Positions 5,443-22,278 of a stretch of DNA of 64,000 bases are shown here, in pieces; the first letter of the stretch is position 1, and every line of letters begins with the position of its first letter. A model generated the notes under the pieces. That model had not been told where the DNA came from, ran no database searches, and was given only the letters and a program-made list of their open reading frames with translations. The stretch comes from Syntrophales bacterium (GTDB lineage Bacteria; Desulfobacterota; Syntrophia; Syntrophales; UBA2251): positions 7,724 to 71,723 of the forward strand of contig DAOPOS010000008.1 in the NCBI GenBank assembly GCA_035358035.1, written 5' to 3'. A program made the position numbers and the translations under genes.

Positions 5443-6492
5443 TCAGAAAAATTTCGCCGCCAGGTCGGTGGAGGATTTCCGGCCGATTTCGTCGTAGTGG
5501 TTCGCGAGGAATTCCCCGGTCTTTTCCCGTCCGGTCTCGAACAGGTATTTCAGGAAATCCATGTCCAGGTTCATCTTGCTCGAGGCCGTCAGCTTGGACA
5601 TCTGTTCCTCGGCATCGATGGTGTGGATGAACGTGTGCTTGTATTTGGTCGCATCCAGCTCCCCCTTTTCGATCAGGGACGTCACGAAATGGATGGCCCT
5701 CATCTCGCGCATGAGGCTGGAGTTGAAGCTCAGGGTGTTGATCCGGTCGAAGATGGCGTTGGCGCTCCGGGGCACCTCGTGAATGTTGATTGGATTGATC
5801 TGGACGATCAGGACGTCCTGGCAGTTCGTGTTGTAGATCACGGGAAAGATGGGCGGATTGCCCATATACCCGCCGTCCCAGTAGTACTCCCCGTCGATTT
5901 CGGGCGCCTGGTACAGGTAGGGCAGGCAGGCGGAGGCCAGGATCATCTTCGGCGTGATCTCCCGGTTTTCGAAGACCTTCAGCCGCCCGGTCAGAACGTT
6001 GGTCGCGCAGATGAACAGCCGGACGGTGCGCGCCTTCTGCAGGACCGGAAAGTCGATCAGCTCCTCGAGGATGTCCCGGAAGACGTTCGTGTCGTTGGGA
6101 TTCCACTGATAAGGGGAGTACATGCGCGAGAGGATATCGAAGGTCTGCCACCAGGGGGAGAATTCCATCGATCCCTTGCTGCCGTAGAGCTTGTCGAAAA
6201 CGGTCGGTTGAAACGGGGAGGACTTCCCGTTTTTTGAATTAAATTCCCAAAAACGGCGCAGCAGCTCCCGCGCTTTCTTGCGTCCGCCCGCGACCAGCCC
6301 GTAGGCGAGAATGGAGGCGTTCACGGCGCCGGCGCTGGTGCCGACGATGCCTTCGATCTCGATGCGCTCGTCATCGAGCAGGCGGTCCAGAACGCCCCAG
6401 GTGAAGGCGCCGTGGGCGCCCCCGCCCTGCAGTGCGAGGTTGATCTTTTTCGTTTCGGCGTGAGCGGTCGTCCGTGCGGGGTTCTTCTTCAT
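5443..6492 (-). CDS. Patatin-like phospholipase/esterase; candidate PHA depolymerase
   Basis: LALQGGGAHGA oxyanion loop, GTSAG nucleophile elbow, DGGY catalytic Asp. The depolymerase role is inferred from context only. Confidence 0.88.
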   Translation of the reverse strand: MKKNPARTTAHAETKKINLALQGGGAHGAFTWGVLDRLLDDERIEIEGIVGTSAGAVNASILAYGLVAGGRKKARELLRRFWEFNSKNGKSSPFQPTVFDKLYGSKGSMEFSPWWQTFDILSRMYSPYQWNPNDTNVFRDILEELIDFPVLQKARTVRLFICATNVLTGRLKVFENREITPKMILASACLPYLYQAPEIDGEYYWDGGYMGNPPIFPVIYNTNCQDVLIVQINPINIHEVPRSANAIFDRINTLSFNSSLMREMRAIHFVTSLIEKGELDATKYKHTFIHTIDAEEQMSKLTASSKMNLDMDFLKYLFETGREKTGEFLANHYDEIGRKSSTDLAAKFF

Positions 6493-6524
6493 GGCGTTCG
6501 ATCCCGGGGTTGTTTTTGCCGCCC

Positions 6525-6553
6525 ACAGTAAGCGAAGGGCGTCGATTTGTCAA
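6525..6553 (-). promoter_or_regulatory. sigma70-type promoter of the patatin gene
   Basis: Minus strand TTGACA (6553-6548), 17 nt spacer, TACTGT (6530-6525), 32 nt upstream of the ATG. Confidence 0.7.
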
Positions 6554-6594
6554 GGATGAAGGCAGGATAACGGCCATCCGCCGATGCGCCGCCC

Positions 6595-8574
6595 CTACAC
6601 GTCGATCTCCTCGCGCGCCTCTTCCGGCGTTTCGTAGATGTGGGGCGACATGCCCCTTTCGTTCAGCTTGTCCCCCAGCTTCATGCGCAGGAAGGCCCCC
6701 GTGGAATAACGGCTGACCTTCTCGTAATACTTGCCGACGACGTAGCTGACCATTTCCGTGTAGTAGTCGACCAGCTCCGGGCTGAGATCGAAATTGTCGT
6801 AGTTCACGATGGTGCGGACCTTCTTGCCCAGGGGCTCCATGACGGCGGACACCGCCGCGCGGATCTCGTCGATCTGCTCCCGGCTCCGGATCGCCAGGCC
6901 CTCGAAATTGACGAAGAAGAGGTTGTCTTCCGGCTGGTAGCGCAGGCGGTTCACGATCGGGATGTCCAGGAGGTCCTTCTTGAGCTCCATGGGCACGGGC
7001 TTGAACAGGCGGCGGTCCATCAGGCGGGGGGCCTGGCGGATGACGGGCTTGAAGTCCATCTGCCCCACGATGTCCCGCTCCACATCGATGCCCGGCGCCA
7101 CCTCGATGAGCTCCAGGCCTTCGGGCGTCAGCCTGAAGACGCAGCGCTCCGTGACGTAGAGAACGTACTTTCGGTCCGCCGCGGCCACGGTGCCGGAGAA
7201 GGTGACTTCCTCCACCCGCTTGACGAACTTCCGCACCTTCCCCTCCTGGACGATCTTCAGCTCGCCGTCGCGGACGTCGATCTTCAGGCCGCCGGCGGTG
7301 AAGGTCCCCATGAAGACGACCTTCCGGGCGTTCTGGCTGATGTCGATAAAGCCCCCGCACCCGGCGATCCTGGGGCCGAAACGGCTGACGTTCAGGTTGC
7401 CCGCCTCGTCGGCCTCGGCCAGGCCCAGAAAGGCCACGTCCAGACCGCCACCGTCGTAGAAATCAAACTGGTGGCTCATGTTGATCAGGGCGTCCACGTT
7501 GACGGCGGCGCCGAAATCCCCGCCGCCGGCGGGCACGCCCCCGATAATGCCCGGTTCGGACGTCAGGGTCAGGTATTCCTGGATCCCCTCTTCCGCCGCC
7601 ACGCTGGAGATGGATTCCGGTACGCCGATGCCCAGGTTGACGATGCTGTTGGGCTTGAGCTCGAACGCGGCCCGGCGGGCGATGATCTTGCGCTCGTTCA
7701 GGGGAATGGGGGGCACCAGGGCCACGGGGATCCGGTATTGATGGGCGTAGGCCGGATTGTAGAGGGTGGCCGCCGTCTGGCGGTGGCGCTCCGCGTTCGT
7801 GACGACGGCGACGCAGTCCACGAGGGCACCGGGGATGATCACGCTGCGCATCGGCAGCGCGCCCCGCTCGGCAAGGCCCTCGACCTGAACCAGGACGAAA
7901 CCGCCGCAGTTCTTCGCCGCCGTGGCGAGGGAGAGGGCGTCCAGATACAGGGGCTCCTTCTCGAAGCCGATGTTGCCCTCGAGATCGGCGGTCGTTGCCT
8001 TGATGATGGCGATGTTGAGCCTGGGAGGTTTGTAGGCGAGATATTCCTGGCCGTCGAAGGCGATCACCTCCACGAGGTCCTCCCGCGTGATCGCGTTGAG
8101 CTTTCCTCCGCCGCACCGGGGATCCACGAAGGTTCCCAGCCCGACCTTGGTGATCGTCCGGGGGCGGCCGCCGGCGATGTCCCGGATCATGACCGAGAGG
8201 ACGCCCTGCGGCAGGTTGTAGCCTTCGATTTTCCCGTCCAGGGCCAGCTGGGTGAGCTTGGGGGTCTTGCCGAAATGACCGCCGATGACCTTTTTGACCA
8301 GGCCCTCGTGCGCAAGGTGCTGCAGGCCCATCTCCTTGCCGTCTCCCAGGGTGGAGGCGTAGAAGAACGTGAGGTCCCGGGGATGGCCCGTTTCGAGAAA
8401 CTTCTTCTCCAGGGCGCAGATGATCTCGTCGGGACAGCCGATCCCGATGATGCCGTTGAAGCCGATCACATCGTTGTCCTGAATGAGATCGACGGCCTCC
8501 TCGATGCTGACGATCTTGCCTCTCCGCATGCCCGCGGTGAGGTCCCGGTGCAGGGGGTGCTGAATGTCCGGCAT
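6595..8574 (-). CDS. Family I acyl-CoA:acetate/3-ketoacid CoA-transferase (fused alpha/beta, YdiF/Pct-like) with extra C-terminal domain
   Basis: YNLPQG, TKVGLGTFVDPR, VNLGIGVPE, catalytic Glu in TSEPG, FYDGGGLD, GCGGFIDISQNA, YVTERCVF; about 120 extra aa at the C-terminus; RBS AGGAGG. Confidence 0.9.
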   Translation of the reverse strand: MPDIQHPLHRDLTAGMRRGKIVSIEEAVDLIQDNDVIGFNGIIGIGCPDEIICALEKKFLETGHPRDLTFFYASTLGDGKEMGLQHLAHEGLVKKVIGGHFGKTPKLTQLALDGKIEGYNLPQGVLSVMIRDIAGGRPRTITKVGLGTFVDPRCGGGKLNAITREDLVEVIAFDGQEYLAYKPPRLNIAIIKATTADLEGNIGFEKEPLYLDALSLATAAKNCGGFVLVQVEGLAERGALPMRSVIIPGALVDCVAVVTNAERHRQTAATLYNPAYAHQYRIPVALVPPIPLNERKIIARRAAFELKPNSIVNLGIGVPESISSVAAEEGIQEYLTLTSEPGIIGGVPAGGGDFGAAVNVDALINMSHQFDFYDGGGLDVAFLGLAEADEAGNLNVSRFGPRIAGCGGFIDISQNARKVVFMGTFTAGGLKIDVRDGELKIVQEGKVRKFVKRVEEVTFSGTVAAADRKYVLYVTERCVFRLTPEGLELIEVAPGIDVERDIVGQMDFKPVIRQAPRLMDRRLFKPVPMELKKDLLDIPIVNRLRYQPEDNLFFVNFEGLAIRSREQIDEIRAAVSAVMEPLGKKVRTIVNYDNFDLSPELVDYYTEMVSYVVGKYYEKVSRYSTGAFLRMKLGDKLNERGMSPHIYETPEEAREEIDV

Positions 8575-8628
8575 GGCCTCCTCCTTGAGGGATCTCCTGA
8601 AGCGATTTCTTTTCCCGGTCGGTGAGGA

Positions 8629-8657
8629 ACTATAAAAAGGTCGGCGGGGCTTGTCAA
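8629..8657 (-). promoter_or_regulatory. sigma70-type promoter of the CoA-transferase gene
   Basis: Minus strand TTGACA (8657-8652), 17 nt, TATAGT (8634-8629). Confidence 0.78.
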
Positions 8658-8736
8658 TCGAATATCGGTGCCCGTCCGGGACGACCTCCGGCGCCGGGGC
8701 GGGATCGTCTCCGGATCGTTTCGCCCCGGGAGGGGT

Positions 8737-9204
8737 TCAGGCCTTCCCCTTGCCGGCGGGTTTGTCCGTGTCGTGAAAGAGGTCGAAAAAGGACTGGAAG
8801 GCCGGGAGCGCCGCGATCGACGTCTGGGTCATCTTGGAGAGGTCCATCCCGAGGCTGAGCCATTTCCGGAACTGTTCGTCCGCCGCCAGCTTGTAGGAGA
8901 GGTAGTTCTTCAGCGTCTGCTCGAGATAGTGGTCGAAGAATTCGACCAGGACGGTTTCACCGTACTGAATGATCAGGTGCAGCAGGGGAACCGGCAGCAG
9001 GCTGTTTTTTTTCCTGGATTCCTCCAGGATGATCTGGGTGAGCGTGAAGGCCGTGACGTCTTCGGCGGTTTTTGCATCGACGACTTCCACGCGACGCCCC
9101 TGCCGGATGACCTGCATGACGTCGTCCAGGGTCACGTAGGCACTTCTCTCCGTGTCGTAGAGGCGTCTGTTGGTATATTTCTTCAAGCGCAGTTTTTCGG
9201 CCAT
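8737..9204 (-). CDS. phaR: PHA synthesis repressor PhaR family
   Basis: N-terminal KKYTNRRLYDTERSAYVTL and EDVTAFTLTQIILEE match the PhaR DNA-binding domain; lies within the pha cluster. Confidence 0.9.
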   Translation of the reverse strand: MAEKLRLKKYTNRRLYDTERSAYVTLDDVMQVIRQGRRVEVVDAKTAEDVTAFTLTQIILEESRKKNSLLPVPLLHLIIQYGETVLVEFFDHYLEQTLKNYLSYKLAADEQFRKWLSLGMDLSKMTQTSIAALPAFQSFFDLFHDTDKPAGKGKA

Positions 9205-9248
9205 CGTCCTTTTCCTTTCTCTTGGCGTTCATAGCGGAGAATCGGTTA

Positions 9249-9402
9249 CAATGCAACAAAAAAATATCGTCGGGCGAGAAAATATTTTCTGTCTCCGGAA
9301 CGATCAACTCATTTATCAACTTGATAATATGATGGATATTAAATTGTGTTCCTCTCGAATCCCAAGAGGAGATGTGGGAAATATTGTTATTGCAATGCAA
9401 CA
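9249..9402. promoter_or_regulatory. Candidate operator elements in the phaR/phasin divergent intergenic region
   Basis: CAATGCAACA at 9249-9258 and 9393-9402; palindromes AGAAAATATTTTCT (9277-9290) and TTATCAA-C-TTGATAA (9313-9327) in an AT-rich island. Confidence 0.5.
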
Positions 9403-9410
9403 TTTTCCGC

Positions 9411-9438
9411 TTGACAAATCTTTCGGGTGCGCTATATT
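9411..9438 (+). promoter_or_regulatory. sigma70-type promoter of the phasin-like genes
   Basis: TTGACA (9411-9416), 16 nt, TATATT (9433-9438). Confidence 0.7.
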
Positions 9439-9490
9439 AGGGCCGACGTTGGGCAGGAATGAAAAAAACGCAAAAAAGGAGGAAACAACA

Positions 9491-9784
9491 ATGGAACAGG
9501 AAAAGATTGCGAAGCAGATGATCGAATTTCACAAAACCACGTTCGACAACACCTTCAGTGCCGTGGAGATTCTCCAGGAGCAGACGGAAAAGATGGTCGG
9601 CATGTTTTTGGACCAGTCGCCGTGGTTCCCGGCTGAGGGGAAGCAGGCGGTCAACGAGTGGTTGAAGACCTACAAGGAAGGACGAGAAACGTTCAAGGAC
9701 AGCGTCAACGAAAGCTACAAGAAGGTGGAAGAATATCTGGGCGCCATCGAGAAGAAGGCCCCCAGGGCGAAGGCGGGCAAATAA
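9491..9784 (+). CDS. Small helical protein, phasin-like (paralog 1)
   Basis: 97 aa from ATG 9491 after AAGGAGG; amphipathic helical pattern; divergent from phaR; 44/83 identities by eye to the next ORF. CDS is solid, function is inferred. Confidence 0.7.
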   Translation: MEQEKIAKQMIEFHKTTFDNTFSAVEILQEQTEKMVGMFLDQSPWFPAEGKQAVNEWLKTYKEGRETFKDSVNESYKKVEEYLGAIEKKAPRAKAGK

Positions 9785-9854
9785 GATCGCGTAACGAACC
9801 TCCGCCCGGGAAGCGATGGCCGGAGGGGGGCAAAAACGGTGAAAGGAGAATGAC

Positions 9855-10133
9855 ATGGAACCGAAACAGATGGCGAAGCAGATGATGCAGTTCAACAAGG
9901 CCGCTTTCGACAACACCTTTAACGCCATGACGGTGCTGCAGGATCAGGCGGAGAAGATGATGAACAGCGTGATCGAGCAGAGCGCCTGGATGCCCGCGGA
10001 AGGCAAGAAGGCCCTGTATGACTGGCTCAAGGCCTACAAGCGGGGACGCGAGGACTTCAAGGCCGCGGCGGACGACAATTACAAGAAGGTCGAAGCGTTC
10101 TTTGCCGGCCTGGAGAAGGGCAAGGGCGCCTAG
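9855..10133 (+). CDS. Small helical protein, phasin-like (paralog 2)
   Basis: 92 aa, RBS AAGGAG; shares AKQM..F.K..FDNTF and PAEGK.A...WLK.YK.GRE.FK with paralog 1. Confidence 0.7.
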   Translation: MEPKQMAKQMMQFNKAAFDNTFNAMTVLQDQAEKMMNSVIEQSAWMPAEGKKALYDWLKAYKRGREDFKAAADDNYKKVEAFFAGLEKGKGA

Positions 10134-10248
10134 GGTCGCCGGCGGCAACCCTGTCCCGACGGGGGGATGACGAGGGGCTTCCCCTGCATCGCGACGACGA
10201 CCGCCGTCGCACCGCCGGATGTCCGCTCTGCCGGAGGATGGAAACGTC

Positions 10249-10734
10249 ATGGACGCAAGATTCTATGAGTTCTGGGTCCGGTTTTTTTCGTCCCTGGCGC
10301 AGGGACGGAACCCCTGGGAAGATTGGATTCCCGGGCGGACCCCGGCGGCCGGCGGCGCCGCCGACTTCGCGGAATTCTTCCGCGGGATGGACGGATGGGG
10401 GCGCCGGGCGGAAGGCGACCTGCCGGGCGGGGAGCTGTGGCAGGCGTCGGCGGAGGCGTTTGAGAAATCGCTCAAGGACTTCCTCGCCCTCTTCGACGTG
10501 GTTTCCCGGGAGGATTATCGGGCCCTGCAGGACGAATGCGCGGCCCTGAAGGAAAAGGTCGCGAGTCAAGAAAAGACCATTGCGGGCCTGAAACGGCGGC
10601 GCGGAAGGAAAGCGGGCGCCTCCCCGGAGGAAACGGTGGAACAGCTCCGGGAGGTCATCCGCAAGCAGAATGAGGAATTCCAGTCGCTCATGAAGACCGC
10701 GTCCGATCTCTTTGAAGGGCCCCCGACATCCTGA
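10249..10734 (+). CDS. Hypothetical coiled-coil protein, possibly PHA granule-associated
   Basis: About 161 aa; FDVVSREDYRALQDECAALKEKV heptads; follows the phasin-like pair on the same strand. Start uncertain (10219 or 10249). Confidence 0.6.
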   Translation: MDARFYEFWVRFFSSLAQGRNPWEDWIPGRTPAAGGAADFAEFFRGMDGWGRRAEGDLPGGELWQASAEAFEKSLKDFLALFDVVSREDYRALQDECAALKEKVASQEKTIAGLKRRRGRKAGASPEETVEQLREVIRKQNEEFQSLMKTASDLFEGPPTS

Positions 10735-10791
10735 ACGGCGAACGTCCGGGCCTCGCGTCCTGCCGCTTCGGGGGTCTGCGGTCGGTTGGTC

Positions 10792-11217
10792 TTATGGCTT
10801 CGCCTTGGGCGGGCTGACCAGGGCCTCGCCGTCGAGAACGACGGTGCCGTCCTGGTTGGTGCAGGTGGTCTTCAGGCGGACACGGTTCTTCTCGGCCAGC
10901 ACCTCGATGACCTCCACCCGGGCTGTGACGGTGTCGCCGAAGCGGACCGGCGCCAGAAAGCTGAGCGACTGCTTCAGGTAGATCGTGCCGGGGCCGGGGA
11001 GCTGCATGCCCAGCAGGTTCGAAATGAAGCCGGCGGTGAACATGCCATGGGCGATCCGGGTTTTGAAGAAGGTGTTTTTGGCGTAGGCCTCGTTGATGTG
11101 GGCGGGATTCAGATCCCCCGTGATCCCGGCGTAGAGATAGATGTCCGTTTCCGTCACGGTCTTCGAAAATTCGGCGGCGTCGCCCACCTTGATCCGATCG
11201 ATCGACTTACCGTTCAT
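10792..11217 (-). CDS. phaJ: MaoC-family (R)-specific enoyl-CoA hydratase
   Basis: Hydratase 2 motif YAGITGDLNPAHINE (catalytic D and H), IAHGM, PGPGTIY, FLAPVRFGD. Confidence 0.88.
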   Translation of the reverse strand: MNGKSIDRIKVGDAAEFSKTVTETDIYLYAGITGDLNPAHINEAYAKNTFFKTRIAHGMFTAGFISNLLGMQLPGPGTIYLKQSLSFLAPVRFGDTVTARVEVIEVLAEKNRVRLKTTCTNQDGTVVLDGEALVSPPKAKP

Positions 11218-11246
11218 GTTCCCCTGTCCCCCTTTCCCGATCGCGC

Positions 11247-12293
11247 CTAAAACCAGCAGCGGTGACTCCAGATTTCATCCTTGAGTTCCTTCATGTCGCT
11301 CTTGAGCATCAGGTAGAGGCCGGCGTTCTGGATGGCCAGCCCCCCCTGGTAGGCCAGGGCGGTGACCAGCAGGATTTCATCCTCCGTAAACTCGCGGGCC
11401 ACGGCGCTGTACAGCCGGAGAACGCCGATCACCCGTTCCTTCGACTTGATGGGAACGCTCAGGATGGTGACGATGCCCTCCGCCTTTTTTTCCTTCTTGT
11501 ACTGGACGCCCTTGTCCGTCGAGGCGTTCCGGACGACCACCGGCTTTCCCTTCAGGGCCTCGGCGATGCTCTTTTCCGCGGAAATCGGCCCCTTGTTGAG
11601 GTATTTCTCGCTGAGCCCGCAGCTGGCGACGAGCTTCAGGGTGTTGCTCTCCTCGTCCAGTAGACGGATCGAGGCCGCCTTGACCCCGATCGCCTGGGAG
11701 ACCTCGTAGCTCAGGGTCTGGAGGATGTCCTTGATGTCGAGGCTGGAGTTGATGCTGGCGGCCAGATCGAGGAAGATCCGGGTGTTCTCCCGCAGCCTTT
11801 CGACCAGCCGCGCGGTTTCGACCGCCACCCCGCCCTGTTCGGCCAGAACCGTCAGGAATTCGATCTCCTCGGCGGAGAAATCCCTCACCTTGGCCGTATA
11901 CAGCGAGAGGGTGCCGATGAAACGGCCTTTGACCCGGACCGGAACCACCAGAATGGAGGCGATGCCTTCCGCCCTTTTCGTCTCCCGGTTTTCCACCCCG
12001 GGATCGGAAGCGGCGTCGCGGAAGTGGAGGTACCCCTTTTTCAGGAGGAGGGGGATTTCCTTCTTGACGTGCGCCAGTCCCGCATGGACATAATTTTTTG
12101 AAAGGCCCGTCTGGGCGACGGGGACGTAGGTTCCCTTCTCCTCATCCATCAGGAAAAGGCAGGCCGCCTTGCCCCCCATGGCCTCGAGGACGCCCTGAAC
12201 GATCAGCTGCAGGATCTTATCCCGTTCCAGGGTCGTTCCCAGGGCCCGGCCGATCTTGACGATGGTCCTGAAATAATTGTTTTGCTTGGTCAT
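11247..12293 (-). CDS. Stand-alone tandem GAF-domain protein
   Basis: Two internal repeats (SILVVPVRVKGRFIGTLSLYT...FSAEEIEFLTVLAEQGG / TILSVPIKSKERVIGVLRLYS...FTEDEILLVTALAYQGG); no output domain. Confidence 0.85.
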   Translation of the reverse strand: MTKQNNYFRTIVKIGRALGTTLERDKILQLIVQGVLEAMGGKAACLFLMDEEKGTYVPVAQTGLSKNYVHAGLAHVKKEIPLLLKKGYLHFRDAASDPGVENRETKRAEGIASILVVPVRVKGRFIGTLSLYTAKVRDFSAEEIEFLTVLAEQGGVAVETARLVERLRENTRIFLDLAASINSSLDIKDILQTLSYEVSQAIGVKAASIRLLDEESNTLKLVASCGLSEKYLNKGPISAEKSIAEALKGKPVVVRNASTDKGVQYKKEKKAEGIVTILSVPIKSKERVIGVLRLYSAVAREFTEDEILLVTALAYQGGLAIQNAGLYLMLKSDMKELKDEIWSHRCWF

Positions 12294-12357
12294 GGGATCT
12301 CTCCTGTCTCGTGTCTGCCATCCGTTGCGGGGGGAAGGCTTCCCTCTCAAGACCGCT

Positions 12358-13593
12358 TTATTTATTCACCGCCCGCTTTGCCGGCCGGAGTCTCTCACTC
12401 TGAAGCCTTTTTTTCTTCGGGGGACGCGCCGGGGCCGGCCGGCCCTTCCCCCGCGCCGCTTTCCCGGGGGTGAACTTGACGATCGCCGCCCCTTTCGATG
12501 CCGGCCGGACGTCCGGCTCGTCCCTTTCCATCAGCCAGCGCGCGATTTTGGGTGCAAATTCTCGCTGGCTCTTGGAACTGACATAGATCCCGATATGGCC
12601 GGTATCGAGATTGACGTCCTCCGTATCCCGGCTGCCGACGTGCCGGGTGAGCTGTTCGCAGGCCGCCGGCGGGACCAGGTGATCGTACATGCCGTAGAAG
12701 TTCAGAAGCGGCATCGTGATTTTCTTGAGATCGACCCGCTTGCCGCCCAGTTTCATCTTGCTCTGGATCAGGAGATTCTTCTTGTAGCAGTCGTTGATGA
12801 ACTGCCGGAAGGTCTCGCCGGGGACGTCGGGGCTGTCGAAGATCCACTTCTCCATGCGGACGAAGTTTTCCACGAAGGGCTTGTTGTCCGCGTTCTCCAG
12901 GAAACCGACGTATTTGTCGATCATGAGGCGGGCCGGGTTCAACAGCAGAAACCCCAGGTTCATCAGATCCGCCGGGATGTTGCCGAAGGTGTCGACGATC
13001 CGGTCGGCGTCGAGGGCCTTCATCCAGATGTGGAGCAGGCCGGTGTCGGTGTCGAAGTGGGTCGGCGTCACCGTCGTGATCAGGTTCTTGACCTTTTCCG
13101 CGTGGAGCGCGGCGTACATGACGCAGAACGAACCGCCCATGCAGATTCCCATGAGGTTGATCCGGGGCAGGTTGTGCTTCCTGCGGATGAAATCCACCGC
13201 ATGATCCAGATAGCCGTTGACGTGATCGTCGATGGTGAGAAACCGGTCCTTCCGGGAGGGATAGCCCCAATCGACCATGTAGAGATCGATGCCGTCCCGG
13301 AGGAAGTTCTTGACCACGCTCCGGTCCGGCTGGAGATCCAGCATGGTTTCGCGGTTGATCAGGGCGTAAACGACCAGGAGGGGGGTCTTGAGCCTGGCCT
13401 CGCCTTCGAGGCGGTAGTGCTTCAGCCTGACGCGGTCTTCCTCGTAGACGACGTCATAGGGCGTGGACGCGATCTCGGTCGACAGCTCGCTGAGCAGGAC
13501 CTCCGACACCTTGGTGACCCGCGCCTGCGCCTTTTCCGTGTCTTCGGCCAGGCTGGCCAGAATGAGATCGAGGGGAATCTTGGGCTGATCCAT
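12358..13593 (-). CDS. phaC: Class III PHA synthase subunit PhaC
   Basis: PLLVVYALINR, lipase-box Cys GICMGG, Asp in YGMYDHLVP, His in DTGHIG, MEKWIFDSPDVPGE; adjacent to phaE. Confidence 0.95.
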   Translation of the reverse strand: MDQPKIPLDLILASLAEDTEKAQARVTKVSEVLLSELSTEIASTPYDVVYEEDRVRLKHYRLEGEARLKTPLLVVYALINRETMLDLQPDRSVVKNFLRDGIDLYMVDWGYPSRKDRFLTIDDHVNGYLDHAVDFIRRKHNLPRINLMGICMGGSFCVMYAALHAEKVKNLITTVTPTHFDTDTGLLHIWMKALDADRIVDTFGNIPADLMNLGFLLLNPARLMIDKYVGFLENADNKPFVENFVRMEKWIFDSPDVPGETFRQFINDCYKKNLLIQSKMKLGGKRVDLKKITMPLLNFYGMYDHLVPPAACEQLTRHVGSRDTEDVNLDTGHIGIYVSSKSQREFAPKIARWLMERDEPDVRPASKGAAIVKFTPGKAARGKGRPAPARPPKKKRLQSERLRPAKRAVNK

Positions 13594-13626
13594 AAGCGTC
13601 TCTCCTCGCCGGGCGGCCGCGCACCC

Positions 13627-14520
13627 TCAATCCGTGTTCAATTGCCTCTCCAGCTCCCGCACCCGCTTTTTCAACTGGTGAAGATCCCGGTAGAGCGCGT
13701 CGACTTCCTTGTGGGTGGGCACGGGCAGGAGCTGCAGGATATCCTGAACAACCTCGTTTTTGGCGATAATGAATTCCGACAGCTGATTGAACATCTCGCC
13801 GAGTGCCTGGTTGTACTCCGGCGACTTGAAGAGCGTCATGAAATGGCCTTCAAGGATCTTGACCCACAGGTTGTAGTACTCCTTGGCCTGCTTCGGAACC
13901 TTCCCCTGCTGCGCCAGCTTTTCAACCTCCTGCTGCATCACCTTGGCGGTCTGCTCGAAGGGGAGGTTGAGCAGGGAAAAGAATTCCGCGCTCGTTGCCT
14001 TGAGCAAGGCGAGCTTGTCGAAGAGCAGGTTCATCCGCTCCTGATAGAATCGGGTCAGACCCAGCTGGGGGATGTAAAAGAACTGACGGATCTCTTTTTC
14101 GTAGATGTCCTTCAGCGTCTTGAAGAACTCCTGGTCCAGGTTCTCGAAGTGGTAGGCCTCGACCTTCCGGCCGATCTTGCCGGCCTTCTCGATGTTGACC
14201 TTCTGAATCTGAAAGCAGGTGTCCCAGGAGGCTTCGGCGACCTTGAGAAACAGGTCGGGGAGGGCGTCAAGACTCTTTGATGCGGCGCTCGCCGCGGCCG
14301 GATCGCTCATCGTGGTGGAAAGCGACTGCCACATCTTGAGGGCCGTTTCCATCGATTCGAGGGACCGGTTGCGCGGCGGTTTCTGGGTGGAGGGCCCCGC
14401 CGCGGTCCCCGTCGGGGGCGGCACCATTTTCAGGAGCGAGGTCCACAGATCCGCCCCCGCCTTGATCCAGTCGGGGGGAAAAAGCCCGTCCGGGGCTTGA
14501 CCCTGCTGCGTCTCGTCCAT
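13627..14520 (-). CDS. phaE: Class III PHA synthase subunit PhaE
   Basis: PQLGLTRFYQE, YYNLWVKILEGHF...SPEY, LPVPTHKEVDALYRDLHQLKKRVRELE; directly upstream of phaC. Confidence 0.9.
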   Translation of the reverse strand: MDETQQGQAPDGLFPPDWIKAGADLWTSLLKMVPPPTGTAAGPSTQKPPRNRSLESMETALKMWQSLSTTMSDPAAASAASKSLDALPDLFLKVAEASWDTCFQIQKVNIEKAGKIGRKVEAYHFENLDQEFFKTLKDIYEKEIRQFFYIPQLGLTRFYQERMNLLFDKLALLKATSAEFFSLLNLPFEQTAKVMQQEVEKLAQQGKVPKQAKEYYNLWVKILEGHFMTLFKSPEYNQALGEMFNQLSEFIIAKNEVVQDILQLLPVPTHKEVDALYRDLHQLKKRVRELERQLNTD

Positions 14521-14691: not shown

Positions 14692-15564
14692 TCAACCGTC
14701 AAGGGAAAAGATGCCGGCATGGTAGGAACTGCGCACGAGCGGCCCCGCCTCGACATGCCGGAAGCCCAGTCCCAGGGCGATTTCCCTGAATTCGGCGAAC
14801 TCGGCGGGGGGGTAGTACCGGGTGACGGGCCAGTGACGGCGCGTCGGCTGCTGGTACTGGCCGATCGTGACGCGCTGGCAGCGGACGGTGGCCAGGTCGT
14901 GGAGCAGGGCGACGATGGCGTCCCGGGTCTCGCCCAGGCCGATCATGAAGCCGGACTTGCTGACGATGTCCCGGTGCGGGTGAAGGGCGGCCAGCAGCCT
15001 CAGGGAGCGTTTGTAGTCCCCCTGCGGGCGGAGGCCCGGAAACAGGGATCTGACGACCTCGATGTTGTGATTGATCACCTCCGGTCCGGCGTCGATGATC
15101 CGCTCCAGCGCCGCGCGGCTCCCCTGGAGATCCGGGATCAGGACCTCGATGCGGCAGTCCGGGAGGCGCGTGCGCAGCAGGTGGATGCAGTGGGCGAAAT
15201 GTCCCGCGCCCCCGTCGGGCAGGTCGTCCCGGGTGACGGAGGTGATGACGACGTAGCGGAGACCGAGGGCGCGGACGGCCTCCACGAGACGCTCCGGCTC
15301 GCCGGCATCCACCGGCGCGGGCGTCCCCTGGCGGATGTGACAGTAGCGGCAGCCGCGCGTGCAGGTGTCGCCCAGGATGAGAAACGTGGCCGTTCCCGCC
15401 CGGAAACACTCCCCCCGGTTGGGGCAGAGGGCCTCCTGGCAGACGCTGTGGAGGCTCAGTTCGGCGAGGGTGCGCGCGATCCGGTGGTCCTCCTCGCCGC
15501 CCGGCAGCCGGACCTTCAGCCAGGGGGGCTTCCGAAGCGGGGGGCGGGCCGTTTTTGCATTCAT
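14692..15564 (-). CDS. lipA: Lipoyl synthase
   Basis: RKPPWLKVRL, auxiliary cluster CQEALCPNRGEC, radical SAM CTRGCRYC, TIGQYQQP, C-terminal VRSSY. Confidence 0.96.
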   Translation of the reverse strand: MNAKTARPPLRKPPWLKVRLPGGEEDHRIARTLAELSLHSVCQEALCPNRGECFRAGTATFLILGDTCTRGCRYCHIRQGTPAPVDAGEPERLVEAVRALGLRYVVITSVTRDDLPDGGAGHFAHCIHLLRTRLPDCRIEVLIPDLQGSRAALERIIDAGPEVINHNIEVVRSLFPGLRPQGDYKRSLRLLAALHPHRDIVSKSGFMIGLGETRDAIVALLHDLATVRCQRVTIGQYQQPTRRHWPVTRYYPPAEFAEFREIALGLGFRHVEAGPLVRSSYHAGIFSLDG

Positions 15565-15575
15565 CGTCAGATCGC

Positions 15576-17411
15576 TCAGAAGTAGTACCAGATCGACTTG
15601 TAGTCGCTGATGTTTTCGCCGTCCGCGGCCAGCCGCTTCAGGTAGTCGTAGATGGAGACGTCCGTGTAGAGATAGTCGAAATTCGTCGTGATCCGCGCCT
15701 CCCAGGTGTAGAAGCGGTACACCCGGCGGCCGTCGGGCAGGATCATGATGATCTCGTGGTCCTGCCAGGCCCGCAGGTTCGACTTCCCCAGGCGGGGGAC
15801 GTTGAAGACCGGTTCGTCCGTCCGGACGACGCCGGGCAGGAGACGGGCCTCCTCCTTCCGCTCCTGCTCGATGCGGGCCATCGGGACCCGGAAGTCCGCC
15901 GTCTCCTCCTTTCCCATCGTGTTGAAGGTGTAGTAGGGATCGATTCCGGAGAGCTTCAGCATCCGCCGGAGCAGGCAGAGTTCGAAGCGGCGGCTGTTGT
16001 AGTACGTGAAGACGTGCTGATTGTAGACATTGACGCCCAGGGCCTTGATCCGCTTGACCGCATCGAGGGCCTCGGGCGTCAGCTCCGCGGCGTGCTCGAA
16101 ATGGGTGGAGATGCAGATCTCCCGGCGGCCCCATTCGTGGTATTTCCTCAGGATCTCGAGGAAGCCCTCATCGATCCGGAAGGGGAGGGTGACCGGAACG
16201 CGGGTGCTGATCCGGATGCGCTCGACGTGGGGGATGTGGGCCAGCTGCTCGACGATCCATTCCAGGCGGCGGTTGTCCAGGCACAGGGGGTCGCCGCCGG
16301 TCACCAGGACCTCGCTGATATGGTCGTTGTCGCGGATCCACGCGACGGCCTCGCGGAGCGCCTCCGGAGGCAGCATCGCGGGGTCGTCGATCTGCTTCAC
16401 CTCCCAGTTGCGCTGGCAATAGACGCAGATTTGCGGACAGGCGTTGAAGGGCTTCAGGATCACGACCTTCGGGTACCGGCGGGTGATCCCGTCGACGGGG
16501 CTCGTCGAGCGCTCCTGCATGAAGTCCATGTCGACGCCCTGCTCCCGGTTGGCCGCGACGCTGGCGCAGTACCGGACGGACGGCAGGACCTGGGCGCGGA
16601 TCTGACGGTCCTCGTCGGTGCGTCCCGAGGCGTTGAACAGGGACAGGTAATAGGGGGTGATCTCCACGGGGATGCCCTTTTGGGCCGCCATCGCGAGCCC
16701 CGCCGTCTCGTCGTCGTCGAGCCGGACGAGCCGGGCGATCGTGTCGAGATCCGTCAGGATGTGCTGCAGGTGCCACCGGGGGTCCCGCCAGTCGGCCTCC
16801 GAGGCCCCGAAGTGCGCGAGGATCTCCGCCTTGAGCTTCCGCCGCTGACGGATGAGGGCGGCGTCGAATCCGGTCCGGTAGCGCCGGCGGTAGCGCCGCA
16901 TGATGGCCGAGTAGGCGTCGAGCTGCCGCGAGCGGGCCGTCGCCGCGGTACGGTCCTGGGCGGCCGACCGGCCGTCCGCTCCCCTCAGGAGTTCCGGGAT
17001 TTTCGGCTGCTTGCCGGCCTTGCCGGTGATGCCCTTGAAGAAGGCGAGGTACTCGCACAGAAAGGCCTCGCTGACCTGCTCCAGCGCCCCCGGGCGGTTC
17101 TGGGCCAGGTCGTAGAGGACGGTGAGCGGCGAGGCGCCGGTCAGGTGCTCGTTTTCCGTCCGGATGGTGTTGGAGAAGACGCGGAGGCATTCCTTGGCGT
17201 TTCTCTTTTCGATGGAATTCATGGTCGCGTAGGGGGTGTCCGGCTTCATGTTGAACATCGAGCGGTTGAGCTGGTTGAAGTAGTCGAACAGGATGTGGCG
17301 TGCCTCCTCGACGTGCTTGGAGCCGGCGAGGATCCTCCGGATCTGCGGGTCGGCGGCCCACAGCTTCTCGACGAGTTCCTTCCTGCCCAGGGAGAGAATG
17401 TTCTTGGCCAT
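15576..17411 (-). CDS. KamA-family PLP-dependent radical SAM enzyme (aminomutase-like) with ~200-aa N-terminal extension; substrate unknown
   Basis: ITRRYP, CPQICVYCQR, VLVTGGDPL, RISTRVPV, THFEH, PYY and PRLGK (PLP-Lys position). ATG 17411 is preferred over TTG 17477. Confidence 0.85.
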   Translation of the reverse strand: MAKNILSLGRKELVEKLWAADPQIRRILAGSKHVEEARHILFDYFNQLNRSMFNMKPDTPYATMNSIEKRNAKECLRVFSNTIRTENEHLTGASPLTVLYDLAQNRPGALEQVSEAFLCEYLAFFKGITGKAGKQPKIPELLRGADGRSAAQDRTAATARSRQLDAYSAIMRRYRRRYRTGFDAALIRQRRKLKAEILAHFGASEADWRDPRWHLQHILTDLDTIARLVRLDDDETAGLAMAAQKGIPVEITPYYLSLFNASGRTDEDRQIRAQVLPSVRYCASVAANREQGVDMDFMQERSTSPVDGITRRYPKVVILKPFNACPQICVYCQRNWEVKQIDDPAMLPPEALREAVAWIRDNDHISEVLVTGGDPLCLDNRRLEWIVEQLAHIPHVERIRISTRVPVTLPFRIDEGFLEILRKYHEWGRREICISTHFEHAAELTPEALDAVKRIKALGVNVYNQHVFTYYNSRRFELCLLRRMLKLSGIDPYYTFNTMGKEETADFRVPMARIEQERKEEARLLPGVVRTDEPVFNVPRLGKSNLRAWQDHEIIMILPDGRRVYRFYTWEARITTNFDYLYTDVSIYDYLKRLAADGENISDYKSIWYYF

Positions 17412-17444
17412 GAGACGGGTCCCCGTGTGTCTTGGTCGAGGGAC

Positions 17445-17473
17445 ATTCTGGCCGAAGCCGCCCCCGACGTCAA
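17445..17473 (-). promoter_or_regulatory. Possible internal sigma70 promoter for kamA-like gene and lipA
   Basis: Minus strand TTGACG (17473-17468), 17 nt, CAGAAT (17450-17445). Confidence 0.5.
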
Positions 17474-17568
17474 TCATTTCCTGACAGGCGTGATCGCGCC
17501 CCTCCCGCGCCCCCTCCGGAGACCGGCTCGAAGGGTTCCGATGTCCCCGGCGCTTTCCCGGCCATGGG

Positions 17569-19083
17569 TCAATCGGGACCGGATGGGCCCTTCCAGCAGA
17601 CGTCCGGCCGGCGGGCGGCCCGGACCTCGTCGAGGCGCTTCACGGGGGTGGTGTGCGGGGCCGACTTCACGATCTCCGGGTCGTCCTTCGCCTCGGCGGC
17701 GATGGCGATCATCGCGTCGCAGAAGGCGTCGAGCGTCTCGAGGCTCTCCGTCTCGGTCGGTTCGATCATGATGGCCTCCGGGACGATCAGGGGGAAGTAG
17801 ATCGTCGGCGGGTGGACGCCGTAGTCGAGCAGGCGCTTGGCGATGTCGGTCGTGTGGACGCCGCTTTCCCGGACCTGCCGTCGTCCGGAAAAGACGCATT
17901 CGTGCATGCAGGGGCGGTCGTAGGCGAGGTCGTAGAAGGCCTTCAGGCGCGCCTGGACGTAGTTGGCGGCGAGGACGGCGTCTTCCGCCGTCTGGCGGAG
18001 GCCCGCCGCGCCGAGGCTGCGGAGGTAGGCGCAGACCCTGACCATCACGGCGACGTTTCCGTAAAAGGCCCGGACGCGCCCGATCGTGTCGGGATACGCC
18101 TCCGACCAGGCGTAGCCCGCGTCCGTCCGGACGATCCGGGGGACGGGGAGGAAGGGTTCGAGGGCGGCCCCGACGCCGACGGGGCCGCTCCCCGGGCCGC
18201 CGCACCCGTGGGGGGTGGAGAAGGTCTTGTGGAGGTTCAACTGGATGACGTCGAAGCCGATCTCGCCCGGCCGCACCTTTCCCAGGAAGGCGTTGGCGTT
18301 GGCGCCGTCGCCGTAGAGGAGGCCGCCCCGGTCATGGATGATCCGGGCCACCGCCGCGATGTTCCGCTCGAAGAGTCCCAGGGTGTTCGGGTTCGTCAGC
18401 ATGAGGCCGGCGGTGTTTTCCGTCGTGGCCGCGTCCAGGGCGTCGAGATCCACGCCGCCCGCGTCGTTGGACGGCACCTGCACGACCTCGTAGCCGCACA
18501 GGGCGCCCGAGGCGGGGTTCGTCCCATGGGCCGTGTCGGGGATCAGGATCTGCGTGCGTTTTTCTCCCCGCTTCTCGAAATACTTCCGGATCATCATGAC
18601 GCCCGTCAGCTCGCCGTGGGCGCCGGCCGCCGGCTGCAGGGTGAAGTCGGCCATGCCGAAGATCTCGCAGAGATCGCGGCGCAGGCCGTCCATCAGCTGC
18701 AGGCTGCCCTGGGCGAAGGCGGCCGGGACACCGGGGTGGAGATCGGCGAAACCGGGCAGCGCCGCCGCCGCGTCGTTCACCTTCGGGTTGTACTTCATCG
18801 TGCAGGAGCCGAGCGGGTAGAAGCCGAGGTCGACGCCGAAGTTGCGGCGGGACAGGGCGGTGTAGTGGCGGACGAGATCGACCTCCGCCACCTCGGGGAG
18901 GTCGACGTCGTTCCGGAGCAGGTGCGCTTCGATGCGCGGGCCGTCGGCCGTCTCCGGCACGTCGCACGGCGGGACCGCGCCGGCCCGCCGGCCCGGCCGG
19001 CTCTTTTCGAAAATCAGCGCAACGTCCGGATGGGGGGGATGCTTTTCCACGGTTTCTCGCTCCGTTCGTTCGATCCGGTTCAA
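17569..19083 (-). CDS. gcvPB: Glycine dehydrogenase (decarboxylating) subunit 2
   Basis: FYPLGSCTMKYNP, QPAAGAHGE, HGTNPAS, LNLHKTFSTPHG (PLP Lys), IEPTETES. Start uncertain (TTG 19083 or GTG 19050). Confidence 0.96.
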   Translation of the reverse strand: MNRIERTERETVEKHPPHPDVALIFEKSRPGRRAGAVPPCDVPETADGPRIEAHLLRNDVDLPEVAEVDLVRHYTALSRRNFGVDLGFYPLGSCTMKYNPKVNDAAAALPGFADLHPGVPAAFAQGSLQLMDGLRRDLCEIFGMADFTLQPAAGAHGELTGVMMIRKYFEKRGEKRTQILIPDTAHGTNPASGALCGYEVVQVPSNDAGGVDLDALDAATTENTAGLMLTNPNTLGLFERNIAAVARIIHDRGGLLYGDGANANAFLGKVRPGEIGFDVIQLNLHKTFSTPHGCGGPGSGPVGVGAALEPFLPVPRIVRTDAGYAWSEAYPDTIGRVRAFYGNVAVMVRVCAYLRSLGAAGLRQTAEDAVLAANYVQARLKAFYDLAYDRPCMHECVFSGRRQVRESGVHTTDIAKRLLDYGVHPPTIYFPLIVPEAIMIEPTETESLETLDAFCDAMIAIAAEAKDDPEIVKSAPHTTPVKRLDEVRAARRPDVCWKGPSGPD

Positions 19084-19190
19084 TGCTTCCGGAACATCAC
19101 CAGCCGCCTGCCTTCACTCGCACGCCGGAGGGAATGGCGCCCTTCAATCCCGGCCTGGAGTTCCGCCGGCGCGGGAACGACCGCCTTCAC
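19080..19190 (-). CDS. Possible 36-aa small ORF between gcvPA and gcvPB
   Basis: GAGGAGG 7 nt before GTG 19190; MKAVVPAPAELQAGIEGRHSLRRASEGRRLVMFRKH; its TGA overlaps the TTG of gcvPB. No homology evidence. Confidence 0.3.
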   Translation of the reverse strand: MKAVVPAPAELQAGIEGRHSLRRASEGRRLVMFRKH

Positions 19191-19264
19191 GGGGACGCCT
19201 CCTCATCCACGGCAACGGGACCGCGTCCGCTGCCGCCGGATCCTGTCCCGGGCACTCCAGGTCT

Positions 19265-20599
19265 TCAGGGGCGGAGGACGTCGACCGCCCGGTCCAGGTC
19301 CGCCCGCGTGAGCAGCTCCGTGGCGCACAGGAGCAGCGTGCCGGACAGCTCGGGATACTCCCCCGCGAGGCTGATCCCGCCGCTGATGCCGGCCTCCGCC
19401 CACCGGGCGTTCACGCCCTCCGGATCGGGACAGCGCAGGACGAACTCGTTGTAGACCGGCCCGGAGAAGGCGGGCGCCCAGCCGGGCAGGTCCAGCAGGC
19501 GCCGGCGCAAATACCCGGCCTTCGCGGCATTCAGCTCGGCCAGGGGCTTCAGGTTCTTCCCCAGGCAGGCGAGGTAGACGGCCGCGGCGAGGGCGCACAG
19601 GGCCTCGTTGGAGCAGATGTTCGAGGTCGCCTTCTCCCGCCGGATGTGCTGTTCGCGGGTCTGAAGCGTCAGGACGAAGGCGCGCCGGCCGTCCCGGTCC
19701 ACCGTGGCGCCCGCCAGGCGGCCCGGGATCTTCCGCAGGAACGGGTCCGTGGCGGCGAAGATGCCGAGATACGGCCCGCCGTAACTGACCGGATTGCCGA
19801 AGGCCTGGCCTTCCCCCGCGCAGAGGTCGGCGCCCAGCTCGCCGGCCGGCCTGAGCAGGCCCAGGGAGGTCGCTTCGGTGAAGCAATGAACGAGGTGCGC
19901 CCCGGCGGCATGGACGGGGGGCGCGGCGGCGGCGAGGTCCTCCACCACGCCGAAATAATTGGGGCTCTGCACGATGACGGCGGCGGTCGATTCCCGGACG
20001 GCGGCCGCGAGGGCCTTGGGGTCGAGCCGGCCGTCGCCCGTGAACGGCGCCTCCTCGACCGCCAGTCCGTTCGCCCAGGCGTAGGTCCGGAGAACCTGGC
20101 GGTACGCGGGGTGGACGGAGCGGGCGACGACGACCCCGGTCCGGCCGAGCGTCCTGGCGGACAGCACCGCCGCCTCCGCCGTCGCCGAGGCCCCGTCGTA
20201 CATCGAGGCGTTGGCCACCGGCATCCCCGTGAGGCGGGCGATCATGGTCTGGTATTCGTAGACGGCCTGCAGGATGCCCTGGCTGATCTCCGCCTGGTAG
20301 GGGGTGTAGGCCGTGGAGAACTCGGACCGTTGCGTCAGGTGTCCGACGACGGCGGGGATGTAGTGCCGGTATGCGCCGGCGCCGGTCAGGGTGATGTCGG
20401 GGAGGCGGTTGCGTTCGCTCAGCGCCTTCAGATGGGTGAAGGCCTCCTGCTCCGAGAGGGCGGGCGTCAGGTCCAGCAGGCGGCTCAGACGCCATCGCTC
20501 GGGGATGTCCCCGAACAGGGCTTCGATGGAGGCGATCCCGACCACGTCCATCATGGCCTTGCGGTCTTCCGCCGTGTGCGGACTGTAATCCATCGGCAT
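19265..20599 (-). CDS. gcvPA: Glycine dehydrogenase (decarboxylating) subunit 1
   Basis: TAYTPYQAEISQG, ANASMYDGASA, LTLQTREQHIRREKATSNICSN. Confidence 0.96.
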   Translation of the reverse strand: MPMDYSPHTAEDRKAMMDVVGIASIEALFGDIPERWRLSRLLDLTPALSEQEAFTHLKALSERNRLPDITLTGAGAYRHYIPAVVGHLTQRSEFSTAYTPYQAEISQGILQAVYEYQTMIARLTGMPVANASMYDGASATAEAAVLSARTLGRTGVVVARSVHPAYRQVLRTYAWANGLAVEEAPFTGDGRLDPKALAAAVRESTAAVIVQSPNYFGVVEDLAAAAPPVHAAGAHLVHCFTEATSLGLLRPAGELGADLCAGEGQAFGNPVSYGGPYLGIFAATDPFLRKIPGRLAGATVDRDGRRAFVLTLQTREQHIRREKATSNICSNEALCALAAAVYLACLGKNLKPLAELNAAKAGYLRRRLLDLPGWAPAFSGPVYNEFVLRCPDPEGVNARWAEAGISGGISLAGEYPELSGTLLLCATELLTRADLDRAVDVLRP

Positions 20600-20612
20600 C
20601 GTCCTTGCGGGA

Positions 20613-21011: not shown

Positions 21012-21044
21012 GGCCTGCTCCTGATCGATAAGGGGTTGTCGGGT

Positions 21045-22139: not shown

Positions 22140-22278
22140 GGGTCACTCCCGGGGCGGCCTTGAGGCCTGTCTTGCGGACCCGCCCGTGCCGGGGGCGGGA
22201 GGCGCCGGGGTTGCGGACAGGGCCGCCCGACCGGTCCCGTCAGGGCCCGCGGGCGATGGATGCGAAGGAACCCCGGAA

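Follow-up and report, generated by a model that had tools for sequence, protein, structure and literature searches.

What is known of the proteins of the carbonosome, the polyhydroxyalkanoate (PHA) granule, and of their regulation comes almost wholly from aerobic Proteobacteria and haloarchaea. PHA turnover is considered an aid to survival for anaerobes, syntrophic or sulfate-reducing, that have to live on very small energy margins. We analyzed a 64-kb stretch of a Syntrophales contig (DAOPOS010000008.1; the whole stretch is called the window below) that carries, at positions 5443–14520, a ten-gene PHA locus with the synthase genes phaE and phaC. A syntrophic lifestyle of the host is assumed on the basis of the taxonomic label Syntrophales only. 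From the same phylum, and of the same synthase class, a class III PhaEC of Desulfococcus multivorans was reportedly described, together with PHA accumulation in sulfate reducers, by Hai et al. 2004 (AEM 70:4440; cited in PMC4326521), so that Desulfobacterota with phaEC reportedly do store the polymer. A review of syntrophic propionate-oxidizing bacteria (PMC8892533) contained nothing relevant on PHA in Smithella.

Among the closest known systems is that of Haloferax mediterranei, which has a phaJ1-phaR-phaP-phaE-phaC cluster and the patatin-type depolymerase PhaZh1, and where the granule-bound PhaJ1 ties PHA to beta-oxidation, chiefly in mobilization (PMC4823750). Like our locus, it joins a class III PhaEC to an (R)-hydratase of the MaoC type, a phasin, and a regulator, has no phaAB in the cluster, and is associated with a PHA-linked patatin (PMC4823750). 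In contrast, its description includes no GAF gene, its genes stand in another order, and the patatin of the window has no conserved linkage to the cluster. Neither the haloarchaeal PhaR, which is of the AbrB type, nor the haloarchaeal PhaP is known to be related by sequence to the bacterial PhaR (PF07879) or to the small proteins considered here. The Aeromonas caviae phaP-phaC-phaJ operon, the classic example of monomer supply by PhaJ, likewise encodes PhaJ together with a synthase and a phasin, and draws C4–C6 (R)-3-hydroxyacyl-coenzyme A (CoA) from beta-oxidation (PMC4823750); the catalytic Asp/His and the chain-length-limiting residues of its PhaJ are kept in the window protein. It differs in its class I single-subunit synthase, in lacking PhaE, PhaR, and GAF genes, and in belonging to an aerobe. 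[quoted passage not shown] This syntrophic fatty-acid oxidizer has, by description, a similar set of clustered synthase, dehydratase, and PhaR genes; unlike our host it is a Firmicute, no GAF partner is reported for it, and it uses an acetoacetyl-CoA reductase too (PMC4324140).

Because of the Haloferax, A. caviae, and S. wolfei precedents, the central idea pursued here is known in kind. The original prediction, made from the letters of the window, had suggested that the architecture may be undescribed. This was overstated, since Haloferax has a PhaJ-linked class III cluster without phaAB (PMC4823750) and S. wolfei a cluster of synthase, dehydratase, and PhaR genes (PMC4324140). What appears to be new, judged by the accessible literature and the family databases, is an obligatory GAF partner, an unannotated family of small phasin-like proteins with a PhaR-box promoter, and a divergent PhaC-like protein found in relatives.

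We consider it likely that the window holds a class III PHA (carbonosome) module in the form it takes in Desulfobacterota, consisting of phaE-phaC-GAF-phaJ, with the GAF protein as a metabolite sensor, and a set of PhaR-controlled small proteins, from which the neighboring patatin and CoA-transferase genes are separate. Ten open reading frames, whose GC content varies with codon position in the way typical of real genes, fill positions 5443–14520, and the coordinates, reading frames, and named identities given at the outset all proved correct. The ten genes do adjoin, as had been claimed, but they are not one co-directional array: they lie on both strands in about four transcription units. Patatin, CoA-transferase, and phaR are on the minus strand, the two small paralogues and a coiled-coil gene on the plus strand, and phaJ, tandem GAF, phaC, and phaE again on the minus strand. 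Because the gaps along phaE-phaC-GAF-phaJ are only 33, 64, and 29 nt, these four genes very probably form a single operon.

Synteny was assessed in 80 loci whose PhaC is 68–99% identical to that of the window, one genome per species, scanned with a PhaC alignment. Nearly all are metagenome-assembled genomes (MAGs), labeled Syntrophales, Syntrophaceae, Smithella, Desulfobacterales, or "delta proteobacterium". Genes were counted by tblastn with the ten window proteins, and the denominators below are the loci with enough flanking sequence. Eight of the ten genes are a module common to many related bacteria. Of the accessory genes proposed to be syntenic with phaEC, the tandem GAF and the coiled-coil gene are so, whereas patatin and CoA-transferase are not. 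Desulfonema magnum, a cultured organism (CP061800), has phaR-phaE-phaC-GAFx3-maoC and, divergently, genes for four small paralogues and for proteins of 520 and 212 aa; the gene set recurs in a second genome that was reached from the GAF side. A compact module thus seems to be common to a large group of Desulfobacterota (Syntrophales, Smithella, Desulfobacterales), with PhaJ coupling in place of phaAB, a recognizable (predicted) PhaR operator, and a sensor protein in a fixed place.

The phaC gene (12358–13593, minus strand) encodes a 411-aa catalytic subunit that scored 436 bits against TIGR01836 (cut-off 365.3) and fell far under the cut-offs of the class I and class II models. Its GICMGG motif with Cys151, and Asp304 and His333, are invariant in 14 homologues; we take these three residues to map to the catalytic triad of the Allochromatium vinosum enzyme. 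The gene for the partner subunit, phaE (13627–14520, minus strand; 297 aa), ends 33 nt upstream of phaC and lies upstream of it in 72 of 72 loci. PhaE matched PF09712 with 90.6 bits (cut-off 25.7) over residues 150–313 only, the N-terminal half being divergent. We conclude that the synthase is a class III PhaEC, for which polymerization of short-chain (R)-3-hydroxyacyl-CoA is predicted.

PhaC further carries a 54-aa C-terminal tail rich in Lys, Arg, Pro, and Ala (residues 358–411; 12358–12522), with 17 Lys + Arg against 4 Asp + Glu. The tail extends past the end of the TIGR01836 model, and all 14 homologues have one, of 33–82 aa and with little sequence conservation. Because these tails resemble the DNA-binding tails of PhaM and PhaF, attachment of the granule to the nucleoid is suggested.

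Directly downstream of phaC lies the gene for a stand-alone tandem-GAF protein of 348 aa (11247–12293, minus strand) that ends in ...EIWSHRCWF. A GAF gene occupies this position in 71 of 74 loci (median gap 86 nt), and look-ups made from the GAF side found it at the same place after phaC in D. magnum and in a second genome, where it comes right after phaE-phaC. According to Pfam, the protein consists of two GAF domains only and has no output domain, be it enzymatic or DNA-binding. The number of GAF domains in homologues is two or three, and all of these proteins end in YLMLxxDMKxLKEEIWSHRxWF-COOH, with W342, H344, W347, and F348 invariant. The AlphaFold model (pLDDT, the predicted local distance difference test, 84) shows two GAF folds linked by a long helix and followed by a long C-terminal helix; it superposes on the tandem GAFs of PDE5, PDE2, CyaB2, and phytochromes, and the nearest solved domain by sequence is the PtsP GAF (3ci6, E 8e-17). 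No paper treating a GAF domain together with phaE/phaC was found in the accessible literature.

Since the protein has no output domain, an invariant tail, and a fixed position beside phaC, the most economical inference is that it is a sensor acting through protein–protein contact on PhaEC or the granule. A dedicated contact fits because the number of GAF domains varies between two and three while the tail does not change. We regard it as highly improbable that the protein is a general signaling one, such as a redox sensor or a binder of cyclic nucleotides, whose targets lie outside PHA metabolism and whose gene has no more than the operon in common with phaC. To be sure, GAF domains serve as generic sensors, the database names of the homologues range over "diguanylate cyclase", "PtsP/GAF", and "GAF domain-containing protein", and no ligand can be assigned; yet the gene keeps its place after phaC across orders and in both GAF-side look-ups, the tail is constant, and there is no output domain.

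As a sensor partner of PhaEC, the protein would respond to a metabolite and act on PhaEC or the granule surface by way of its C-terminal helix and WSHRxWF tail. A more far-reaching proposal, tentative though possible, makes it a dedicated third, ligand-gated component of PhaEC or the carbonosome that docks by the helix and tail and switches between storage and mobilization according to a metabolite (an acyl-CoA, a carbon/nitrogen, or a redox signal). Together with the unannotated phasin family (~900 representative clusters) and the divergent PhaC-like paralogue of relatives, this would define a distinct Desulfobacterota carbonosome. If true, the ligand-gated GAF protein would represent a post-translational control of PHA synthesis unseen in model organisms.

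A scheme of transcriptional control can be proposed with the help of phaR (8737–9204, minus strand), which is present in 45 of 52 loci. It encodes a predicted PHA-responsive repressor of 155 aa whose DNA-binding domain matched PF07879 (PHB_acc_N) with 93.3 bits (cut-off 25); there was no match to PF05233 in PhaR. The intergenic region between phaR and the first small gene (9205–9490; 286 bp) is AT-rich, the GC content of the window being ~65%, and its length is kept at ~240–285 bp in 46 related loci. It contains a sigma-70-type promoter for the small genes (TTGACA at 9411–9416, 16 nt, TATATT at 9433–9438; 11 of 12 matches). Eleven bases upstream of this promoter is the palindrome TTGCAATGCAA (9390–9400), of which this is the sole exact copy in the 64-kb window; the whole element spans 9390–9438 on the plus strand. 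The palindrome fits YGCRNYGCR, the published PhaR motif (PMC12542648), and binding of PhaR to it is predicted. In 45 of 45 related intergenic regions, YGCRNYGCR stands 18–21 nt upstream of TTGACA, which is followed at ~17 nt by TATAAT, while the flanks have diverged.

A degenerate copy with one mismatch, TTACAATGCAA (9246–9256, plus strand), lies 42 nt upstream of the phaR start, and a comparable site is found near the same position in many, not all, related loci. The count of PhaR boxes is not significant by itself, with 3 matches at ≤1 mismatch in the window against 4.8 expected; the evidence for the operator is its position and its conservation across loci, not the count. No PhaR box was detected upstream of phaE in any locus or upstream of the CoA-transferase gene, and neither a sigma-54 or sigma-70 promoter nor a PhaR box was detected upstream of phaE in the window and 71 relatives.

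A matching arrangement has been worked out in Sinorhizobium meliloti, where YGCRNYGCR with AT-rich arms is a PhaR motif validated by electrophoretic mobility shift assay that flanks the −35 element of phasin promoters (PMC12542648). The PhaR (AniA)–phasin circuit of that organism and the one proposed here have in common the DNA-binding domain of PhaR, a palindrome by the −35 element, and a weaker site near phaR (PMC12542648). They differ in that we find one strong site per promoter where S. meliloti has two (PMC12542648), in that the genes controlled here belong to no known phasin family, and in the divergent C-terminal half of our PhaR. In keeping with the classical titration circuit, PhaR would hold down the small-protein promoter, and probably that of its own gene, up to the point where nascent polymer draws it off; thereupon the granule would receive a coat of phasins, namely the small proteins and the coiled-coil protein.

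Paralogue A (9491–9784, plus strand, divergent from phaR; 97 aa), whose gene comes first after the PhaR-box promoter, has a strong Shine–Dalgarno sequence, AAGGAGG, 9 nt upstream of its ATG. Its product is 50% identical to that of paralogue B (9855–10133, plus strand; 92 aa). Such genes, encoding proteins of 85–100 aa, occur divergently from phaR in 44 of 52 loci, in one to five copies per locus. The family is sizeable, with 906 representative clusters when the limit is E ≤ 1e-3 and 329 when it is E ≤ 1e-10; its members are named "hypothetical protein", and in UniRef two D. magnum copies are called "Phasin domain-containing protein". Neither paralogue has a Pfam or NCBIfam match below E 0.01. 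The phasin models tested were PF09361, PF05597, PF09602, PF09650, TIGR01841, and TIGR01837. Assignment to a phasin family was also tried with 20 members (Pfam, NCBIfam) and a PDB profile search, and was rejected, the hits being spurious weak ones (Gag_p10, designed helical bundles); among the 20, there was a single PhaP_Bmeg match at E 0.012.

The strongest argument available for regarding the small proteins as PhaR-controlled phasins is the PhaR-type operator and promoter conserved upstream of them, and we infer this role on that ground. Because neither they nor the coiled-coil protein matches a curated phasin family, the term "phasin-like", used from the beginning for the two paralogues, has to be understood as a statement about context (the PhaR-box promoter, the pha locus, and the size of the proteins); in that sense it stands, and as a family assignment it does not. 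Several proteins of 160–190 aa hold two copies of the small phasin-like domain. One entry of the representative library, P0411, has 34 stretches of it (E 2e-27) in 7875 residues; it is a repeat protein of giant size, or else an artifact of assembly or gene calling.

The third plus-strand gene (10219–10734) encodes a coiled-coil protein, a candidate granule-associated protein outside the curated families, of 171 aa if read from the first ATG. The start is probably at 10249 (161 aa), as in the orthologues, which begin MDxxFxEFWG, and in one gene call. The gene is present in 32 of 52 loci. A central segment of ~56 residues aligns with a motif at the C-terminus of PhaE (probability 64% and E 6.7e-5 by hhalign), and the protein weakly matches TIGR01837, a model of PHA granule-associated proteins (E 0.002), as does the shared-motif region of PhaE. 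The idea that it might be a truncated PhaE was rejected, as the ~56-residue motif is all that the two have in common.

Monomer supply would fall to phaJ (10792–11217, minus strand), which encodes a 141-aa MaoC-type (R)-specific enoyl-CoA hydratase (PF01575, 87.6 bits) and is present in 47 of 63 related loci. The protein aligned with the (R)-specific enoyl-CoA hydratase 5cpg at E 2e-35 and with A. caviae PhaJ (1iq6) at E 2e-27. Asp35 and His40 of its GDLNPAH motif correspond in the alignment to the catalytic dyad of the A. caviae enzyme, and Leu68/Leu69 and Leu133/Val134 are found where that enzyme has the residues restricting it to C4–C6 substrates (dyad and limiting residues as given in PMC4823750). 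Searches of the 64-kb window by tblastn with E. coli AtoB and FabG (queries from NC_000913.3; E ≤ 1e-3) gave no thiolase or short-chain dehydrogenase/reductase (SDR), nor did the Pfam annotation of the other window genes. The absence of phaA and phaB that had been noted for the locus therefore extends to the whole window, and the combination of class III PhaEC with an (R)-hydratase-type PhaJ and no phaAB nearby is kept in the Syntrophales and Smithella relatives.

PhaJ would reversibly interconvert crotonyl-CoA and other short enoyl-CoAs (C4–C6) with (R)-3-hydroxyacyl-CoA. Because of this interconversion, PhaEC would be able to polymerize monomers directly from beta-oxidation or crotonyl-CoA metabolism, with no thiolase, reductase, or redox step, and PhaJ would also return mobilized monomers to the same pathways. 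Coupling of this kind would amount to a redox-neutral shunt between enoyl-CoA and polymer.

Some of the related loci are built differently. An adjacent thiolase + SDR pair lies near the phaEC cluster in six Desulfobacterales-type loci (L033, L034, L044, L052, L069, and L070; for example L052:16978–19070), with thiolases 48–58% identical to AtoB. The three loci that lack the GAF gene (L033, L059, and L070) belong to this group. Loci labeled Syntrophales or Smithella have no adjacent pair, and their sole thiolase-like match (L012) is 37% identical and ~9 kb upstream of phaE.

We have weighed whether PhaJ serves mainly in mobilization, converting (R)-3-hydroxyacyl-CoA to enoyl-CoA for beta-oxidation as in Haloferax, with the monomers for synthesis coming from an unlinked thiolase and acetoacetyl-CoA reductase. 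The clustered, granule-bound PhaJ1 of Haloferax indeed plays a small part in synthesis and mediates mobilization (PMC4823750), S. wolfei expresses an acetoacetyl-CoA reductase too (PMC4324140), and in L033, L052, and L069 a thiolase + SDR pair occurs together with phaJ. Against this, phaJ of the window is co-oriented with phaE-phaC-GAF and follows tightly behind them, the window has neither thiolase nor SDR, and adjacent pairs are missing from the Syntrophales and Smithella loci. The two roles of PhaJ are, moreover, not mutually exclusive, as the reaction is reversible. Taken as the main function of PhaJ in this lineage, mobilization thus seems rather unlikely to us.

Several points nevertheless weigh against the overall reading of the locus as a PhaJ-fed, PhaR-controlled, GAF-sensing module. 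Against the more specific models, PhaE reached 73.7 bits with TIGR01834, under the cut-off of 154.95, and PhaR reached 97.7 bits with TIGR01848, just under the cut-off of 109.45, its C-terminal half being divergent. An attempt to read the GAF ligand from structure was abandoned, since PDE5, PDE2, phytochrome, CyaB2, and PtsP are all similar and no ligand-specific conclusion follows. Binding of the small proteins to the granule is deduced from context. PHA production, like the direction in which PhaJ would run in vivo, is a prediction from the genes. Finally, phaJ is absent from 16 of 63 loci, and because some Desulfobacterales-type loci have thiolase + SDR as well, PhaJ-only supply is not universal: the monomer-supply module differs within the clade. 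In the window lineage itself, monomer may come from phaAB genes placed elsewhere in the genome, or from an NADPH-dependent reductase that draws on the beta-oxidation thiolases in which such organisms abound.

In most relatives (30 or more related PHA loci), the small genes are separated from the coiled-coil gene by one for a further conserved protein, here called protein X (~520–590 aa); the window lineage is without it. Examples are L007:13380–15083 (minus strand), L017:6491–8221, L038:16688–18451, and L086:3260–4822 (D. magnum QTA88715). Protein X is a remote homologue of PhaC (TIGR01836, E 1e-6, model positions 44–343), in which the invariant LNGFCQGG (Cys331), DD505/506, and GH531 align with the Cys-Asp-His of PhaC. 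Its NCBI name is "metal transporter". It may act as a second synthase, or else as a depolymerase of the thiolytic kind. With the GAF partner and the new phasin family, this second PhaC-like protein is among the testable candidates, for which D. magnum offers a cultured host.

At the other end of the locus are two genes that had been counted as members of the system. The first encodes a patatin-like serine hydrolase of 349 aa (5443–6492, minus strand; PF01734, 90.5 bits) with GGGAHG, Ser53 in GTSAG, and Asp206 in DGG intact, and the oxyanion loop with them. The second (6595–8574, minus strand) encodes a fused family-I acyl-CoA:acetate CoA-transferase of the YdiF/propionate-CoA-transferase type (659 aa; PF01144). 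Over residues 19–527 it matched E. coli YdiF (2ahu) at E 6e-138, Glu340 in SEPG aligning with the catalytic-Glu motif of YdiF; against the FadX model it scored 428 bits, under the cut-off of 750. A C-terminal extension of ~130 aa (residues 528–659; 6595–6990) is absent from YdiF and gave no match to a Pfam family, and the length of 659 aa is common to most members of the 90% cluster of the CoA-transferase.

Patatin was found in 1 of 44 loci and CoA-transferase in 2 of 44. L003, which is the same species as the window, accounts for the lone patatin case and for one of the two with a CoA-transferase; the second CoA-transferase match (L062) is 8 kb away on the other side of phaE. Orthologues of the patatin at 82% (Smithellaceae), 63% (Syntrophales), and 61% identity stand in unrelated contexts, where neither a pha gene nor a CoA-transferase gene lies less than 7 kb away. 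Because the family is 58–62% identical even in Alphaproteobacteria and others, a general function of the patatin is suggested. On the Syntrophales contig of the 63%-identical orthologue, a nearby gene (L089:3405–5207, plus strand) encodes a 600-aa protein with weak alpha/beta-hydrolase matches. A sigma-70-like promoter site in the spacer between phaR and the CoA-transferase gene (8657–8629, minus strand; TTGACA, 17 nt, TATAGT; 11 of 12 matches), which has no PhaR box, suggests that CoA-transferase and patatin are a transcription unit of their own.

Since the pair is not syntenic with phaEC, the refuting condition set in the original prediction applies to it, and it lies outside the conserved system, as a separately promoted, lineage-specific neighboring unit, and the comparison takes both genes out of the system first proposed. 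A role in PHA hydrolysis and re-activation of 3-hydroxybutyrate is possible, without comparative support. The stronger version, in which all ten genes are one system, the patatin is an intracellular depolymerase that frees 3-hydroxybutyrate for the CoA-transferase to turn back into the CoA ester, and carbon and CoA are buffered in this way, is in our judgment unlikely. It can appeal to the intact Ser-Asp dyad and catalytic Glu motif, to the position of the genes directly beside phaR, and to the patatin-like protein of Haloferax, a proven PHA depolymerase (PMC4823750). One may also speculate that in this lineage, which has no protein X, the pair replaces a thiolytic depolymerase, the product, 3-hydroxybutyryl-CoA, being the same. 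The lack of synteny, the unrelated, pha-free neighborhoods of the orthologues, the wide spread of the patatin family, and the separate promoter argue otherwise, and knockout of the patatin depolymerase in Haloferax left mobilization in vivo unaffected (PMC4823750).

A PhaC identical to that of the window is encoded on a JGI metagenome contig of 110 kb (3300009675, Ga0116149_1000095) and also on a contig in ENA. The closest genome record by PhaC is the MAG "Syntrophaceae bacterium UBA2251" (99% identical), and near-identical proteins carry the database names "Syntrophales bacterium" and "Syntrophus sp.". The remaining genes of the window are housekeeping ones (M16 peptidases, lipoyl synthase, a radical-SAM protein, the glycine cleavage system, an ABC transporter, rho, prfA, nusA, infB, and type IV pilus genes). 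Those immediately upstream of phaE (14692–22200, minus strand) encode lipoyl synthase and a 611–633-aa radical-SAM protein, followed by gcvPB, gcvPA, gcvH, and gcvT, and have no evident link to PHA. As no promoter was detected between lipA and phaE, there may be read-through from one into the other.

Two minor observations concern the related loci. In D. magnum, two genes for PilZ-domain proteins (cyclic di-GMP receptors) lie just downstream of maoC (L086:12276–12767 and 15492–15953), which may be coincidence. Two loci with a typical Desulfobacterota-type phaE-phaC-GAF order, L034 and L075, come from MAGs labeled "Candidatus Krumholzibacteriia" and "Flavobacteriaceae", which points to a binning error or horizontal transfer.

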